The notes under the pieces were generated by a model that saw only the letters and a program-made list of their open reading frames with translations, was not told the origin of the DNA and made no database searches. A DNA stretch of 36,707 nt, from positions 1 to 36,707 of the forward strand of contig CAZGJX010000033.1 of the NCBI GenBank assembly GCA_964525635.1, given 5' to 3'. Positions 6,985 to 14,506 of this stretch are shown piece by piece; the stretch's first letter is position 1, and each line of letters starts with the position of its first letter. Made by a program: the position numbers and the translations under genes. Source of the DNA: an uncultured archaeon. GTDB lineage: Archaea; Asgardarchaeota; Lokiarchaeia; Sigyniarchaeales; SOKP01.

Positions 6985-8177
6985 TTAATCTTGATTAAAC
7001 TTATCTCTTTTTTTTCCTAAATATGGCATAGCATGTTTATATCTTTTCATAATGAATCGAGAAATAACGATTCTCTGAATTTCACTTGTTCCTTCATATA
7101 TTTGATACAATTTTGCATCTCTAAATAATTTTTCAACTGGATATGTACGTAGATATCCATATCCTCCGAAAATCTGAATTGCTTCAGTAGTAACATTCAT
7201 AGCAACATCTGAAGCAAATGCCTTTGCAATTGAAAAGCTTAAATTATTATCTATTCCTTGATCTGCTTCCCAAGCAGCTTTATAGGTCAAAAGTCTTGCG
7301 GCTTCGATATCCTTATACATATTAGCAATTTTGAATTGAATTGCTTGATATTTTTCTATAGGTCTCCCAAAGACTTCTCTTTTTTTGGTATAATCTATGG
7401 AATATTCCATAGCAGAACGAGCACATCCAATAGCAAAAGCTCCAATAGCAGGACGTGTGTGAGCAAAGGTTTGCATTGCTAATACAAAACCCCTCCCAGG
7501 TTTTGCTAAAACATTCTCTTTTTTAACCCTGACATTTTTTAATGCTACTGAAACTGTATTAGAAGCTCTCTGCCCCAATTTAGGAATTTGTTTTCCTAAT
7601 CTTACTCCTTCTATATTAGTTGGTATAGTAAAAGCACCTATTCCTCGATGTTTCATTGAGGGATCTTTAGTAGCAAAAATAGTAATATAATCTCCATATC
7701 CCCCATTGGTTATCCAGAACTTTGTTCCATTTAAAATATATTCATCTCCATCCTTTTCTGCAAGACATTTCATATTAGCTACATCAGAGCCCATTGAAGG
7801 TTCAGAAGTAGCAAAAGTAATAAGCTTAAAATTACTAACCAATTCTGTTAGAATACGTTGCTTTTGTTCTTCAGTACCCCAATAATTATTGGTTCTGCTC
7901 CTAAATTATTATCAAATATAGAAGTTGCGATACCTGGACATGCAGATGCAATCTCTTCAACAACTATACAAGCATCTAATAATCCCAATCCTTGACCTCC
8001 ATATTCTTTAGGAATAGCTAGATTCAATAAATTCTGTTCCCATGCCTTCTTTAATATCTCTATTGGAAATTCTTCAGTTTCATCATATTTATGAGCAACA
8101 GGTAACACTTCATTAATTGCAAATTCTCTTGCCTTTTCTCTTAACTTAATTTGTTTTTCTGATAAATTAAAATCCAT
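6985..8177 (-). pseudogene. Acyl-CoA dehydrogenase split by a -1 frameshift (probably a sequencing error)
   Basis: ORFs 7848-8177 and 6985-7842 join as ..EPIIIG-GTEEQKQRIL.. if one G is added to the G4 run (CCCC 7877-7880). The SEPxxGSD, NGTKFWITNG, FGGYGY and IYEGTSEIQR motifs are intact. Confidence 0.88.
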
Positions 8178-8340: not shown

Positions 8341-8368
8341 TACGTTATGTCTCATAATACATTTCGAT
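8341..8368. promoter_or_regulatory. ModE-type (molybdate/tungstate-responsive) operator candidate
   Basis: taCGtTATGTc-tcataa-TACATttCGAT aligns without gaps to the ModE consensus ATCGnTATATA-N6-TATATAnCGAT, with both CG dinucleotides at the correct spacing. It ends 34 nt before the operon start. Confidence 0.55.
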
Positions 8369-8402
8369 ATATTAAATTAAAAAAAAAAATTACGGATTTA
8401 AT

Positions 8403-9614
8403 ATGGAAATAGGTAAAAAAGACGGTTTACTAGGAGGCTTATTGATTAGTATCTTTATTCTTGCTGGATTATCAGGCTTTCTCGGTCTTTCATTATTAAA
8501 TGTAGAGAAGGGAAACGCCCCAGAACAGACGATCCCTGGTCCATGGGGCTTACCTGATGATTGGAGTACTGCATATAATTCATCTTATTTTACTTTAGAC
8601 AATGGCACAGATATAATTAAAATAACTCTTGGAGATCTTCTAGAGGGGATTACTTTAGCTTTAGATGAAGAAGAGAATGGAAATGGAGCAGATATTAATG
8701 AATATAAAGTCCCACTTTATCTCTATACTATTCAAGATCCTTATTCTGGGATTTACTATACAGGAGTAGATATCTTAGATGTTTTAGAACATTGGAATAC
8801 AAATTTTGCATATAATCTCTCTTTTATGGCCTCAAAAACTCCTGATGGATTTAGTTCTGTAAGATATTTAAATATGAGTACGGCAGATATTATAAATAAG
8901 ATGTATGAGAATGATGAAGATCCTGTAATTATTGCTTTGGCAGCAAATAAAGGATGGCTTCCAGGATCAAAATTGGGTAATTTTACAATTGTAGGTAAAA
9001 ATATGAATGAATCATTGAGTAATTTAGAATATATAAGTGTATTAGATTCATGGAAAGTAGATATTTATGTTAATAATACTCTTGAATATACAATTGATCC
9101 TAGTAATATGATGACCAATGAATATGATGCCACCTATTATTATGAGGATAATGATTGGTGGAGTTTTAATAGACACTATTGGGGAAGAAATATTTCAGAA
9201 ATTATTTCCCACACCTCAATATTAGCCGAAGAAAATTACACAGTAAGAATCTGGTCTTGTGATAATTGGGCAACTCCAGTCCCATCTGGAACAAGTCCAG
9301 AAAAGCCATACAATAATACTGATGTTGAAGAAGGTATAACTCCTCCTTGGAATCCTGATAAGGATTTAGTTAATGATCCTGAGGAACCCTTACCTGAGTC
9401 TGATTTACTGATGAGTTTGGTATATGCAGACCAAGAATTTGGAGAAACGGGGCAAGGTATAACAGATCCTATCTGGCCTTATAGGTTAATGTGTGGTTAT
9501 CATAGAGGACCATTTTATGTATGTATTCCTGGAAGACCAAGACGTAATTATCTCTCACATGTTGTAAAAATTGAGATTACCGTATATCCAGGATCGATTC
9601 CTGACGATTTGTAA
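8403..9614 (+). CDS. Membrane-anchored surface protein with two divergent molybdopterin-oxidoreductase-like (sulfite oxidase fold) repeats
   Basis: N-terminal TM and many N-x-S/T sequons. Two repeats (YTGVDILDVL..FMAS..DG..IIALAAN..GNFTIV..LSNLEYI and YWGRNISEII..IWSCDNW..LVYADQ..GPFYVCIP..LSHVVKIEI) parallel the 10589-11134 protein. Confidence 0.6.
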   Translation: MEIGKKDGLLGGLLISIFILAGLSGFLGLSLLNVEKGNAPEQTIPGPWGLPDDWSTAYNSSYFTLDNGTDIIKITLGDLLEGITLALDEEENGNGADINEYKVPLYLYTIQDPYSGIYYTGVDILDVLEHWNTNFAYNLSFMASKTPDGFSSVRYLNMSTADIINKMYENDEDPVIIALAANKGWLPGSKLGNFTIVGKNMNESLSNLEYISVLDSWKVDIYVNNTLEYTIDPSNMMTNEYDATYYYEDNDWWSFNRHYWGRNISEIISHTSILAEENYTVRIWSCDNWATPVPSGTSPEKPYNNTDVEEGITPPWNPDKDLVNDPEEPLPESDLLMSLVYADQEFGETGQGITDPIWPYRLMCGYHRGPFYVCIPGRPRRNYLSHVVKIEITVYPGSIPDDL

Positions 9615-9671
9615 ATATTCAATTAACTAAAAATATTTTTTTTATTTAATTAACATATTAAGTATTATCAT

Positions 9672-10583
9672 ATGAATGGAAGAAATATGTCATCAAAAAG
9701 ATTGTGTTTATTTTTATCATACTTTTTTATAATTTTATTAACAATTCCTTTATGTTATGGATATTGGGGAAATGAAGGAGATTGCCAAGATTATCATAAT
9801 ATTACAAAAATTGAAATACCATATGATAAAGATGCCATTATCACTTTAGATGGGATACCATCTGAACCTTTTTGGAGAGATCCTCAAAATAATAATGGAA
9901 TGATAACCGTTCCTTTAGCTAGTAAGATAGGTAAACCTGGATTTTTTATAATTTATTTAAATTTGACAGTTATTATGAATGATAATTACATATATTTACT
10001 ATGTGAATGGAATGATAATTCAACAAGACCATACTTGAGTAATAACATCTATGATGGATTATTTTTCTGTTGGGACATAAATGTTCCTGATTTTTCAGCA
10101 GATTTTTGGGATGGAATGGAAACTGATTCTATGGGTGGTGGAAGAGTTGATAGCTGGGGGTGGATCTGTAATGGTTATCCTCCAAGTACTCCTGGGAATG
10201 GCTCTTCCTATTTCATAGATGATCGCTGTTTTGATGAAAATGGATGGTGTAGTAGCTTTGAAAGTAGTGATGTTGCTATTGGATATACTTATCGAGAAAA
10301 TAAAAGTTATATTGTAGAATTAAGCAGAGAGTTATATTCAGATGATGAATATGATGTACAAATCATAAAAAAAGAACTCTATAAATTTAATTTAGCTATT
10401 TTAAACGATGGAACACATGAAGATCATGCAATTTCTTGGACATATGCTTTAGATCTAACTGAAAACACCAGTGCTATTATTGGATATAATTTTATTATCG
10501 TGGTACCTATTATTTTCATCTCGGTAATAGTTCTAATTCAGAAATTCAAGAAAAAAATAGATTTTATCAATAGGAAAGAATAA
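9672..10583 (+). CDS. Secreted DOMON-like (ethylbenzene dehydrogenase gamma / cytochrome b558-566-type) protein with C-terminal sorting TM
   Basis: Signal peptide; ITLDG..E..W, YIYLLCEW.D, DGL...W, M....VD.W.W, Y.VEL.R.L...D..DVQ and F..A......H motifs. C-terminal IIGYN-TM-KKK resembles a Loki-CTERM tail. Confidence 0.65.
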   Translation: MNGRNMSSKRLCLFLSYFFIILLTIPLCYGYWGNEGDCQDYHNITKIEIPYDKDAIITLDGIPSEPFWRDPQNNNGMITVPLASKIGKPGFFIIYLNLTVIMNDNYIYLLCEWNDNSTRPYLSNNIYDGLFFCWDINVPDFSADFWDGMETDSMGGGRVDSWGWICNGYPPSTPGNGSSYFIDDRCFDENGWCSSFESSDVAIGYTYRENKSYIVELSRELYSDDEYDVQIIKKELYKFNLAILNDGTHEDHAISWTYALDLTENTSAIIGYNFIIVVPIIFISVIVLIQKFKKKIDFINRKE

Positions 10584-10588
10584 AGAAA

Positions 10589-11134
10589 ATGGAAAAACGG
10601 AAATTTTATATACTGGTCTCTATAGTATTAGTTGGAATTAGCATTTTTTGGTTAAATATTTATGCATTTATAGAATTAGAAATAGATCCTTTTTGGAAAT
10701 TTAAAAATAATGACACTCTTACCATTAAAGGAAATGTAAAAACAGATTTAGTCTTAAATTTAGAAGATATAAAATCAGATCTCTACCACCAAATTGAAAA
10801 TCAAGAATTTCATTTTGTAAATGCAATAGGACGACAGTTTGATAACAATTATTCTGGAGCATCTCTTTGGAGTATTTTAATAGTAGAGGGGATACTAAAC
10901 GCAGATTCTTCAACTTTCCAATTTATAGGTGCTGATGGATTTAAATCTCCATATCCTATATCTTTATCATTAGCAGAAGAAAATCTAGATTATGTAATTA
11001 TAGCCTATGAATGTGATAATTCACCATTATTTCAAGATGGTCCATTAATGTCTATCGTTGATTATAGTGTAATTCCTAATGAAGCTACTACACACTGGGC
11101 TGTGAAGAATTTAGTAACTATTTTAATAGGATAA
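10589..11134 (+). CDS. Membrane-anchored molybdopterin-dependent oxidoreductase-fold protein lacking the Mo-ligand Cys
   Basis: N-terminal TM; LTIKG.V.....L.LEDI, YSGASL..IL, F.GADGF, IIAYE.D..PL...GPL..IV and VKNL..I motifs of the Oxidored_molyb family. No Cys precedes the YxG motif. Confidence 0.75.
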   Translation: MEKRKFYILVSIVLVGISIFWLNIYAFIELEIDPFWKFKNNDTLTIKGNVKTDLVLNLEDIKSDLYHQIENQEFHFVNAIGRQFDNNYSGASLWSILIVEGILNADSSTFQFIGADGFKSPYPISLSLAEENLDYVIIAYECDNSPLFQDGPLMSIVDYSVIPNEATTHWAVKNLVTILIG

Positions 11135-11148
11135 AAAAATGAAAAAAA

Positions 11149-11793
11149 ATGAAATCAGAAGAATTTAAAAAAGAAAAGGAAGTTTATGTAAGAGAAATAG
11201 AAGAAGTTAATGGATATAAAAAGACAGGATTTAAAAAAGTAAGAGAAAACAAATTAACTACCTTAGATCTCTTATATTCAACTATAATTGGAGTTATGGG
11301 TGGATTTATCTCTAGTATTATCCCTTTTAGTTTATTAATAAAAGTATGGTATCCATTGACTGGTGGAACACAGCTCGTTAGTGGACATCATGTTATGTGG
11401 GCAGTTATTGTTTATGGCCTCACTCAGAAAAAGAGAAATATAATGATTACAATGCTCTCAAAGGGATTAATAGAATTTTTATTAGGAGATATATGGGGTA
11501 TTGTAATTATTTTTGTAAATATAATGGAGGGATTTTGTTTAGTTATAGGATTTTTTCTAATAGAGAGAATTGGGGAAGGTCAAACAAATCTAGGTTGGGG
11601 AATTGCTGGAGGATTTGGTAACTTTTTTCAAGCTCCTTTTTTTTGGATGGTTAATCAAAGGTGGCATCTACACTGGTCATTATGGGCTATAGCTTTAATG
11701 TTTGCTTTTATCTCGGGTATTTTGATTACAGGAATCTTGGGAAGAACTATTAAAAATGCATTGATAAAGGCTGGTGTACCAACAACTTTTTGA
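11149..11793 (+). CDS. ECF transporter substrate-binding S component
   Basis: About 6 hydrophobic helices, T.LDL...IIGV.GG start and G..EFLLG motif; adjacent to A and T components. Confidence 0.8.
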   Translation: MKSEEFKKEKEVYVREIEEVNGYKKTGFKKVRENKLTTLDLLYSTIIGVMGGFISSIIPFSLLIKVWYPLTGGTQLVSGHHVMWAVIVYGLTQKKRNIMITMLSKGLIEFLLGDIWGIVIIFVNIMEGFCLVIGFFLIERIGEGQTNLGWGIAGGFGNFFQAPFFWMVNQRWHLHWSLWAIALMFAFISGILITGILGRTIKNALIKAGVPTTF

Positions 11794-13630
11794 TGATGGG
11801 TGTGATATATTGATTAAAGATCAAAATTTAGCTGTTTCTTTTCGAAATTTCTCTTTCATTTATAGTACAGATATAGACCAAAAACCCACTTTATTTGATA
11901 TTAATTTTAATCTCTTTGAAGGCGAAACCTTAATTATAGCAGGTTCAAGCGGGAGTGGAAAATCTACTTTAACCTACGCAATGAATGGTATAATTCCTTG
12001 GAGACTAAAAGGATTTGCTAAAGGAGATGTATATATTTATGATAAAAATATATGGAATTATAAATATACGGAATTATGTAAAATAGTTGGTGTTGTAAAA
12101 CAAAATCCTTTAGATCAATTAGTCACTTTTACAGTAAGAGATGAAATTGCTTTTGGACTTGAAAATTTAAAATTTTCAAAAGAAGAAATAACAAATAGAG
12201 TCAATGAAATTACACAATTTATGCAAATTGATCATTTATTAGATCGTGATATAAATCAATTAAGTGGTGGTCAAAAACAATTGGTAATTCTTTGCTCATT
12301 TTTAGTAATGAAACCTAAGATTCTGATATTAGATGAACCAATAGCTTTCTTAGATCATCAATCAGAACATTTATTACTAAATCAATTAAGAAAATTAAAG
12401 AAATCTAAGGATTATAACTTGACTTTAATTATTGTTGAGCACAGATTAAACCGTGTTTTAGATATTGCTGATAAAATATTAATCCTAAGTGATGATGGAA
12501 CAGTTAGAGTAGAGGGAGATATTCAAAGAATATTAAAAGAAGAATTTGAATTAGTAAAAATAAGTAATCTTCGTATTCCTTGGATATTGGAGATTTATAA
12601 TATGTTTATTTCTAAAGTTCAAGATATTAATTTATTAGACAACAATATAAATTTCCAGAATTTTATAAATTATATTGGTAATTTAAAATATCAAGATCTT
12701 CAAGAATTTAAGAATATCCTCATTGATACAATAATAGAACCAACAATTATAAGGGAATATGAAGAATATGAGCAAATAATAGATTTTGAGAACTTATACA
12801 TCAATTCTTTAAAAAATAAATTTAATAATCACAAGAATGAAGATGAAAAATCAAATTTAAAGATAAATAAATCAGATAATATAATTTTAGAGACTAAGAA
12901 TTTATCATTTACTTATCCTAATTCAGGAATTAAGGCTATAAAGAATCTTTCTATTAAAATTAAAAAAGGAGAATTTATAGGATTAATTGGACCTAATGGT
13001 TCAGGAAAAACTACATTTTTGTACTTATTAGCAAATTTATATGATCCTACCTCTGGAACTATTTACTTTAAGAATATTGAACTACCTGAGATAGATCAAA
13101 ATGAATACTCAAAAAAAATTGGATTTATATTTCAAAATCCAGAAAAGATGATATTCAAATCTTCCATAAAAGATGAAATTCTTTATGGAGCTAAAAATTT
13201 TAAACTTCTTGATGATATCAGTGAAAAATATTTATCTAAACTAATAAAACTTATTGGTAAAGAGGATCCTGATAAAAATCCATTTCAGTTAAGTTGGGGG
13301 CAAAAAAGGAGACTTAATCTAAGTTGTATATTTATTTACAATCCTGATATTATTTTATTAGATGAGCCATTCATAGGTCAAGATCAAAGAACAATTGATT
13401 TTCTTATTGAAACGTTATATATTGAAAATAAAAGAGGTAAGACAATTATAATATCTTCACATGATTATCAATTACTTTTAAAATATACAAATAGAATAAT
13501 AGAACTTGATAAAGGAGGAAAACTTAAAACTGATGATTCAAATGAGAATTTTTTTAGTAAAAACAAAAAATTAGGGCCAATGTTATTATTAGACAAAATT
13601 AACAGAAGATTAAATGATTTGAGTAAATAA
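11774..13630 (+). CDS. ECF transporter fused A-A' ATPase (true start possibly TTG 11810)
   Basis: Two ABC domains: GSSGSGKS / QNP / LSGGQ / ILDEP / EH and GPNGSGKT / FQNP / LSWGQ / LLDEP / SHD. Confidence 0.92.
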   Translation: MYQQLFDDGCDILIKDQNLAVSFRNFSFIYSTDIDQKPTLFDINFNLFEGETLIIAGSSGSGKSTLTYAMNGIIPWRLKGFAKGDVYIYDKNIWNYKYTELCKIVGVVKQNPLDQLVTFTVRDEIAFGLENLKFSKEEITNRVNEITQFMQIDHLLDRDINQLSGGQKQLVILCSFLVMKPKILILDEPIAFLDHQSEHLLLNQLRKLKKSKDYNLTLIIVEHRLNRVLDIADKILILSDDGTVRVEGDIQRILKEEFELVKISNLRIPWILEIYNMFISKVQDINLLDNNINFQNFINYIGNLKYQDLQEFKNILIDTIIEPTIIREYEEYEQIIDFENLYINSLKNKFNNHKNEDEKSNLKINKSDNIILETKNLSFTYPNSGIKAIKNLSIKIKKGEFIGLIGPNGSGKTTFLYLLANLYDPTSGTIYFKNIELPEIDQNEYSKKIGFIFQNPEKMIFKSSIKDEILYGAKNFKLLDDISEKYLSKLIKLIGKEDPDKNPFQLSWGQKRRLNLSCIFIYNPDIILLDEPFIGQDQRTIDFLIETLYIENKRGKTIIISSHDYQLLLKYTNRIIELDKGGKLKTDDSNENFFSKNKKLGPMLLLDKINRRLNDLSK

Positions 13631-14506
13631 ATGACTAGAAAAAATAAAATTTTAGATAATAAACTATATACATTTGCATATATTCCAGGAAACTCCTTTA
13701 TGCATAAATTGAATCCTATTTCTAAAATCTTTTTTTTGATTATTTTGACATTTTCAACATTTTTAATTAAAAGTCTAATATTTTTAACTCTAATCTTTTT
13801 ATCCTTGATTATTTTAGCATTAATGAGCAATATTTCTTTAAAAAACCTTATTTTAAAATTAAAATTCATATTTTTTATTCTAATTTTTAGTATCTTATTG
13901 AATATTTTCTTTAATGCTATTCCAGACCAAAATGATGAGGTTTTATTTTATTTATTTAATCTACCATTTTTAAAAATAAGGAGATTAGCAGTATATTTCG
14001 CATTAAAAGCTTTTTTTATTATTTTAATTCTATATACATCTACAATTATATTTACTTATACTACTAAAATGAAAGATTTTGTATATTCATTGATGAGATT
14101 AAAAATCCCTTATAGATATTGCTTTGCATTTATGGTTGCAGTAAGAAATATCCCTTTAATTCAACAAGATGCAAGAACTATAGCGTTAGCCCAAAAGGCA
14201 AGAGGATTTGATTCTGAAAAAGTAAACACAATAAAAAAAGTATATTTTCTAATATTTGAACGCCTTATTGCTACAATTGTTTCTACACTTAGAAGAACCA
14301 ACACTACATCAATATCGATGGAAAATAGGTGTTTTGGAATATATAAAAAAAGAACAAATTTAATTAAAATTAATTTTAGGAGGTTAGATGTCTTTTTTTT
14401 GATCATTTTTTCTTGTCTCTTCCTATTATTAATTTTATATATTCTTGAAATTATACCTATTCCTCACTTTCCATCATTATATTCTTTTTTTTTAAGATAC
14501 TTCTAA
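13631..14506 (+). CDS. ecfT: ECF transporter T component (EcfT/CbiQ family)
   Basis: YIPGNS.MHKLNP.SK start, TM bundle, and coupling motifs AQKARG and SMENRCF. Confidence 0.92.
   Translation: MTRKNKILDNKLYTFAYIPGNSFMHKLNPISKIFFLIILTFSTFLIKSLIFLTLIFLSLIILALMSNISLKNLILKLKFIFFILIFSILLNIFFNAIPDQNDEVLFYLFNLPFLKIRRLAVYFALKAFFIILILYTSTIIFTYTTKMKDFVYSLMRLKIPYRYCFAFMVAVRNIPLIQQDARTIALAQKARGFDSEKVNTIKKVYFLIFERLIATIVSTLRRTNTTSISMENRCFGIYKKRTNLIKINFRRLDVFFLIIFSCLFLLLILYILEIIPIPHFPSLYSFFLRYF

Follow-up and report, generated by a model that had tools for sequence, protein, structure and literature searches.

YkoEDC of Bacillus subtilis, a group I energy-coupling factor (ECF) transporter for thiamine and hydroxymethylpyrimidine (HMP), is encoded by a dedicated operon and combines an S component of family PF09819 (YkoE, PDB 5EDL) with a fused double ATPase and a T component. 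The same parts occur in a six-gene operon on a 36,707-nt stretch of DNA (the window) from an uncultured archaeon of the Lokiarchaeia, which is described here. This group I ECF importer is predicted to be dedicated to the salvage of metal-loaded pyranopterin, i.e., the tungsten or molybdenum cofactor (Wco or Moco), in place of its de novo synthesis, a reading that we consider probable. Compared to YkoEDC, the S component is only distantly related (45.5 bits against YkoE, versus 170−285 bits for the main Asgard members), a ModE-type box or a Moco riboswitch stands in place of the thiamine pyrophosphate (TPP) riboswitch, extra surface proteins with the sulfite oxidase (SO or SUOX) fold or a fusion of S to such a domain are present, and there is no tie to thiamine auxotrophy.

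The surface proteins have described counterparts as well. PruR (PMC11194511; PDB 7kos, 7kp2, 7rkb, 7kom) is likewise extracytoplasmic and non-catalytic, with a SUOX fold devoid of the Mo-ligand Cys; however, its hairpin is truncated and carries a Trp (PW motif), and it signals to sensors of the DcpA type, whereas the proteins described here are membrane-anchored and transporter-coupled, and have Asn, Gly, or Arg on a full-length hairpin (in protein C, in the domain fused to S, and in domain 2 of protein A, respectively). No DcpA-type sensor is encoded in the operon, and the neighbors in the loci read are ECF genes. Enzymes of the sulfite oxidase family (SorA, MsrP/YedY, SoxC) share the Moco-binding fold, but proteins A and C lack both the Mo-ligand Cys and the dimerization domain, and catalysis is not expected.

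As for regulation, the operator is of the type known from the ModE regulon with ModABC or TupABC, and in sister genomes the box precedes tupABC-moa; there the transporter is a binding-protein ABC system, whereas here it is an ECF transporter, present where synthesis is absent. Dietary Moco salvage by Caenorhabditis elegans (PMC7849362, PMC9026282) offers a parallel in which a ready-made, probably protein-shielded cofactor replaces synthesis. It takes place in an animal gut, and a 2021 review, which names this animal as the sole exception regarding Moco uptake, calls the mechanism unknown (PMC9026282), whereas here there is a defined prokaryotic candidate transporter. The present system is a group I ECF transporter, and it is not YkoEDC, a sulfite oxidase, or PruR; the kind of transporter is known, and it is strongly implied that Moco/Wco is a substrate so far undescribed for it. 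Papers describing a prokaryotic Moco importer, of the ECF type or any other, were not found, with most subscription journals lying outside the search.

The window comes from a genome (G000) of 4.45 Mb that is 100% complete. Homologues that carry names put this genome in Promethearchaeota. In what follows, L-numbers denote loci, G-numbers genomes, f-numbers Asgard families, and P-numbers proteins of the comparison set. The operon is made up as follows:

8343−8366, no strand: ModE-type palindromic operator CGTTATGT-N8-ACATTTCG, 36 bp before the first gene
8403−9614, + strand: gene A, surface protein putatively for cofactor capture, whose two tandem domains have a Cys-less SUOX/PruR fold (model, fold matches)
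9672−10583, + strand: gene B, accessory DOMON/EB_dh-like surface protein with a signal and a C-terminal anchor (PF09459 below cut-off)
10589−11134, + strand: gene C, one SUOX-fold domain with an N-terminal anchor (fold model), predicted partner of S (complex model)
11149−11793, + strand: ECF S component, PF09819 clan (above cut-off), distant from YkoE
11774−13630, + strand: fused ECF ATPase pair A−A′ (TIGR04520/04521 best matches; two motif sets)
13631−14506, + strand: ECF T component, CbiQ/EcfT (PF02361, E 4.6e-26; Arg motifs)

An initial annotation of this DNA had proposed six tightly packed co-directional genes with a complete S + A−A′ + T transporter, and both statements hold: the open reading frames (ORFs) run in one direction with, in gene order, gaps of 57, 5, and 14 bp, an overlap of 20 bp, and an abutting last pair, and the last three encode a PF09819 protein, two ECF ATPase domains, and a CbiQ/EcfT protein.

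Cofactor demand and the exchange with the synthesis operon

The source genome contains three aldehyde:ferredoxin oxidoreductases (AORs) and four molybdopterin-oxidoreductase matches. In the window itself (1740−3791, + strand) lies the alpha subunit of a formate dehydrogenase (FDH), an enzyme of the bis-molybdopterin guanine dinucleotide (bis-MGD) type, with TIGR01591 above cut-off and the Cys motif present. A MobA-like gene (G000:C86:2944−3620, − strand, L074) has an intact N-terminal motif; its open frame has no ATG, GTG, or TTG start and probably begins with ATA or ATT. By contrast with this demand, neither family models nor tblastn with close relatives found MoaC, MoeA, MoaE, the C-terminal domain of MoaA, MoaB, MobB, TupA, or ModA in G000. 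Some candidates were discarded on sequence and neighbors, namely, a PF00994 match that is a split CinA, a PF13531 match that is an unrelated binding protein, and a PF12849 match that is PstS-like, while the MoaA-like matches are generic radical SAM proteins. The CinA-like gene (L071, C26) is interrupted by a stop.

S, MoaC, MoeA, and AOR were then searched in one set of 301 Asgard genomes, 296 of which have AOR. In the five families in which both states occur (n = 192), 112 genomes have only S, 59 have only synthesis, 6 have both, and 15 have neither, and a profile search found no further S in any synthesis-positive genome. S and Moco synthesis are therefore mutually exclusive in these five families, bar a few genomes. 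Fisher P values overstate this contrast because kin are not independent, and contrasts within genera and synteny were relied on instead. The two exclusive states are both found inside 11 genera, and two genomes assembled as one contig each (G210 and G259) have only S, so that deep kinship and assembly gaps are not easy explanations. Among the S-only genomes of the Loki class (n = 35), none has TupA, the second binding protein tested, or moeA. Family f29 served as a prospective check: moaC and moeA are absent from all 11 genomes, and a profile search detected a divergent S in 8 of them, with the gene order SO-T-MobB-SO-S or T-MobB-SO-S and a box in 7 of the 8 loci.

The synthesis operon has the order tupABC-moaC-moaA-moaD-moaE-moeA-moaB-moeA, and many Loki genomes have the ECF operon between the very genes that flank the synthesis operon of sister genomes. 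In one genus, the ECF locus L044 and the synthesis locus L188 have four upstream and three downstream genes in common (73−86% identity), and both cassettes begin behind a ModE-type box. Hence, the two operons exchange places at one locus in sister Loki genomes; in the window, the neighbors of the ECF operon differ from the flanks of that locus. The initial annotation had suggested looking for co-occurrence of S with incomplete moaA/moaC/moeA pathways, and the outcome is in its favor, with the system replacing the pathway. As separate observations, S occurs twice and C is duplicated at locus L045 (G270:C182), in a genome that keeps cofactor synthesis as well, and in family f24 a second S paralogue stands alone, without SO domain or ECF module (L057:7140−7811, L060:6953−7573, L066:7658−8290).

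The ModE-like box that had been noticed before the operon turned out to be the best site of the genome and to be shared with Mo/W genes. It is the top match to the consensus in G000 and also the top match to a matrix built from 18 Loki operons of other genomes (20.4 bits; 0−1 equal matches per shuffled genome). With the same matrix, 35 of 49 held-out Thor/Hermod operon regions score ≥10 bits, versus 0.8 in shuffles, and 14 of the 20 biosynthesis loci have strong sites, in most cases ahead of tupABC and frequently with a further one ahead of moaC or moaA. The box resembles the Escherichia coli ModE consensus quoted in PMC545781. The matrix scan gave no second convincing box in G000, the next-best site (17.7 bits) lying before an acetyltransferase/deacetylase-like gene. 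In two relatives (L048 and L050), a ModE-like gene stands divergently beside the ECF operon; its G000 homologue, located elsewhere (C2:99262−99645, 127 aa), has only the DNA-binding domain.

The ModE-type control and the occupation of the tupABC site would also suit an importer of tungstate or molybdate that takes the place of TupABC, with the cofactor coming from an unknown non-homologous pathway. Metals are carried by some ECF systems, bacterial copies of the operon adjoin modABC or tupA, and family f7 lacks both known routes. However, the entire moa/moe operon goes together with tupABC, the bacterial loci have modABC alongside and a riboswitch that senses the cofactor, and three pterin-binding folds would be left unexplained, which makes an oxyanion substrate very unlikely.

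Surface proteins and their predicted coupling to the transporter

Sequence searches of Pfam, NCBIfam, and PDB returned no match for gene A, which was identified by folding alone. Its model (pLDDT 88.8) has two SUOX-type domains: domain 1 (residues ∼55−216) matches PruR (7kp2/7rkb; Z 12.9, root-mean-square deviation (rmsd) 2.3−2.4), and domain 2 (residues ∼216−403) matches sulfite oxidase/SorA with Z of about 10−12. A has a single transmembrane helix at 9−27 and 10 N-glycosylation sequons, and its 72 homologues are, where named, all from Asgard or unassigned. The model of gene C (pLDDT 92.9) has one N-terminal transmembrane helix and a domain with a full-length β-hairpin, of which residues 40−181 superpose on SorA (2blf) over 132 aligned residues (Z 16.8, rmsd 2.0); matches to the sulfite oxidase family overall have Z 12−17, and those to PruR have Z 14−15. 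Thus, both 8403−9614 and 10589−11134 have the SUOX fold, in agreement with the proposal of two anchored proteins carrying three sulfite oxidase/MsrP-fold domains without the Mo-ligand Cys.

The ligand position was set by offset and profile, without atom overlay, as the residue 12 positions before the conserved Gly of the W/YxG motif, taking as reference a Cys-bearing Loki SUOX protein whose ligand Cys has this offset. In the window, this position is occupied by N78 in C, T109 in A domain 1, and D249 in A domain 2. Among homologues, it is Asn in 18 of 29 C proteins, as in the window, invariably Gly in the domain fused to S, and Arg in 59 of 63 copies of A domain 2, where the window copy has Asp249. 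No Cys is found near it in 29 C-type, 15 fused, and 63 A-domain-2 sequences. A domain 1 mostly has Thr, with a Cys at the exact offset in 7 of 64 homologues and within the ligand-position stretch in 9 of 64. C and the fused domain keep the 12-residue spacing of the Cys-bearing SUOX protein, versus 9 in PruR, and the PW motif of PruR is not found. Apart from these, some large proteins of the cell surface (L166:2−3571, P0249 with 1556 aa, and P0287 with 1234 aa) repeat the SO fold many times over, with as many as 10 matched stretches.

Gene B matches PF09459 (E 5.9e-6, under the Pfam cut-off), weakly NxrC (7b04_C), and EB_dh clusters of the Atlas, in line with the DOMON-like surface protein of the initial annotation. 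The protein has a signal, a C-terminal anchor, and many N-glycosylation sequons. Met149 and His252 are conserved among its homologues; such a Met/His pair is typical of heme-binding DOMON domains and suggests a putative heme b. The N-terminal helices of A and C and the richness in sequons of A and B are consistent with a surface location of all three proteins.

This putative heme, together with the fact that SUOX enzymes operate with cytochromes, brings up a further possibility, namely, that A, B, and C act together at the surface, either as a redox enzyme that pairs the SUOX fold with a heme-b DOMON domain or in heme uptake, with the ECF transporter importing the product or the heme. B is, however, dispensable, being absent from several Loki operons and from every fused operon type, the three domains lack the ligand Cys, the loci read showed no connection with heme genes, and the trading of places with the moa operon would go unexplained, so that a redox or heme function has little probability.

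Regarding the transporter, all features tested identify it as group I ECF. The fused ATPase (618 aa), which may really begin a few codons after the GTG, has two sets of Walker A, signature, Walker B, and H-loop, and the T component has the ARG-type motifs KARG189 and ENR230. The S, A, and T genes lie side by side in the window, as they do at most of the loci read, while the f29 loci have no adjacent ATPase. In the model of the S−C complex, the ipSAE is 0.77 (best control 0.18); the mark was attained for 58 of 80 solved complexes, as opposed to 2 of 110 mismatched pairs; contact agreement between runs is at least 95%, and the pLDDT of the partners is at least 89. The helix of C packs against S residues 173−188, and its domain, including residues 79−80 beside Asn78, touches S 65−72 and 168−178. 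The model supports the prediction that C binds S.

The S component matches PF09819 above cut-off, YkoE (5EDL) is its best PDB match in the profile search (E 6.9e-11), and names in databases read thiamin/HMP permease. All this would fit an importer of thiamine or HMP like YkoEDC, and an importer of folate or of a methanopterin-type pterin may be considered along with it. As a control, thiC was searched in family f1 and is present in 67 of 69 genomes, whatever their S state, and on this ground thiamine was rejected as the substrate. Furthermore, no TPP riboswitch was detected in any scanned locus, G000 encodes a cyclohydrolase of the MptA/FolE2 type, and distribution, box, and synteny follow Moco. 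Substrates of this group are thus extremely unlikely. Clustering of S with YkoE, together with binding of its substrate, had been named beforehand as a result that would speak against cofactor import; the two do share a Pfam family, but the relationship is the distant one given above, and thiC is independent of S.

Fused forms, bacterial carriers, and the nature of the substrate

Related loci were retrieved with an alignment of the fused protein, as S on its own as query retrieved none and a broad S alignment gave no usable pattern. S and the SUOX-fold domain make up a single protein in Thorarchaeia, Hermodarchaeia, further groups of Asgard archaea, and one Thermoplasmata metagenome-assembled genome (MAG). 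The fusion also occurs in syntrophic or alkaliphilic Bacillota (Pelotomaculum, Syntrophomonas, Syntrophaceticus, Anoxynatronum). In all these carriers taken together, it is often found after a phosphoesterase−SO fusion or beside modABC/tupA. Hence, the survey of gene neighborhoods shows a conserved linkage, to the point of fusion, and not a peculiarity of G000. Of the 15 non-Asgard loci, 8 have the Moco riboswitch RF01055 immediately upstream, and none is preceded by a TPP or cobalamin riboswitch; no Rfam element was found in the window region. TrmO_N-FmdE-like proteins recur beside bacterial operons (L156:1296−2138, L161:5096−5905, L177:1020−1832). A calcineurin-like phosphoesterase−SO fusion is encoded upstream of S−SO in Thorarchaeia and Bacillota (L065:6136−7413; L164−L166, L168, L172), and it may trim a nucleotide or phosphate off the cofactor before uptake.

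Such processing at the surface would also be in line with the uptake of a pathway precursor or of a metal-free pterin, such as cyclic pyranopterin monophosphate (cPMP), molybdopterin (MPT), or an oxidized or dephospho form, which unrecognized enzymes would then finish. PruR-type folds bind small pterins, moaD or moaB stand beside the operon in a few S-only genomes (L035−L037), and bacterial carriers retain moeA. On the other hand, moaC and moeA are missing from S-only Asgard genomes, as is TupA in the Loki class and moaE in G000, and the 12-residue spacing at the Cys-equivalent position of C and of the fused domain is SUOX-like and not the 9 of PruR, and we regard a precursor as an unlikely substrate. 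With no moeA and no oxyanion importer, free metal or a metal-free pterin would be unusable, and the metal-loaded cofactor is therefore the simplest reading; a non-nucleotide metal-MPT is most likely the form imported.

To this end, the SUOX-fold domains of A and C would bind the pterin end of the cofactor at the cell surface without ligating the metal, shielding the cofactor yet being able to release it, as the loss of the ligand Cys would permit binding without commitment. Then, C would dock on the outer loops of S and hand the cofactor over, and A−A′ and T would power the toppling of S, with release of the cofactor inside. From there it could reach the AORs or, via the MobA-like protein, bis-MGD enzymes such as the FDH at 1740−3791. 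The ModE-like DNA-binding protein would control the operon via the box, and B might be an optional heme or redox helper.

Capture of the cofactor followed by ECF import, as first proposed from the sequence, is supported by the folds, by the conserved and sometimes fused linkage, and by the replacement of the moa pathway. Several observations weigh against import of the metal-loaded cofactor. Free Moco is labile, and the 2021 review cited above knows of its uptake in C. elegans only (PMC9026282). PruR, the one characterized Cys-less SUOX family, has small pterins as its ligands and is probably unable to accommodate Moco (PMC11194511), and A domain 1 has a short hairpin and PruR as its best match. 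The ModE-like protein matches TIGR00637 below the family cut-off (E 2.6e-12) and lacks the Mop sensor domain. Most genomes of the comparison are MAGs, and kin among them are not independent. Non-Asgard carriers keep moaC in 14 of 17 cases and moeA in 15 of 17; the exclusion is thus not universal, and in bacterial carriers the importer supplements synthesis. Finally, family f7 has AORs, yet 26 of its 28 genomes have neither S nor synthesis.

An SO-fold match was found in 22 of the 28 f7 genomes and in neither of the two with synthesis. At the three f7 loci read (L178:7862−12722, L179, L180), the gene for a surface protein with the SO fold in tandem is followed by two ABC_membrane+ABC_tran genes, a pair of the heterodimeric exporter-fold type, and no box was found at the SO-fold/ABC loci of this family. 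This locus may be a second, non-ECF importer of the cofactor.

Taken as a whole, it appears reasonably likely that an ECF transporter and de-catalyzed cofactor-binding folds make up a prokaryotic importer of the intact W/Mo cofactor, that at least 112 of the 301 Asgard genomes, which look like cofactor auxotrophs, have exchanged tupABC-moa for it, and that W/Mo pyranopterin is traded in anaerobic communities. Moco and Wco are generally held too labile to serve as nutrients, and the operon supplies named, expressible proteins for studies of cofactor capture, stabilization, and transport. If the reading is right, Asgard archaea have a hidden auxotrophy that may bear on their dependence on partners and on their cultivation, and transporters now annotated as thiamine or cobalt permeases would be reassigned. 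Non-catalytic domains that shield Moco could, moreover, act as cofactor carriers.

Other features of the window

The DNA of the window is present in salt-marsh metagenomes, and no RNA dataset is listed as containing it. Directly 3′ of the operon (14618−15064, + strand) lies a gene for a calmodulin-like protein with four EF-hands, an adjacency that is not kept in relatives. On the other side, an acyl-CoA dehydrogenase-like gene (6985−8177, − strand) is broken into two ORFs in different frames, with a frameshift near 7850, and has the intergenic region in common with the ModE-type box. Farther away (28190−32419, − strand), the window encodes a cellulase-like glycoside hydrolase of family GH9, 1409 aa long with fibronectin III domains, which is N-terminally anchored or secreted.

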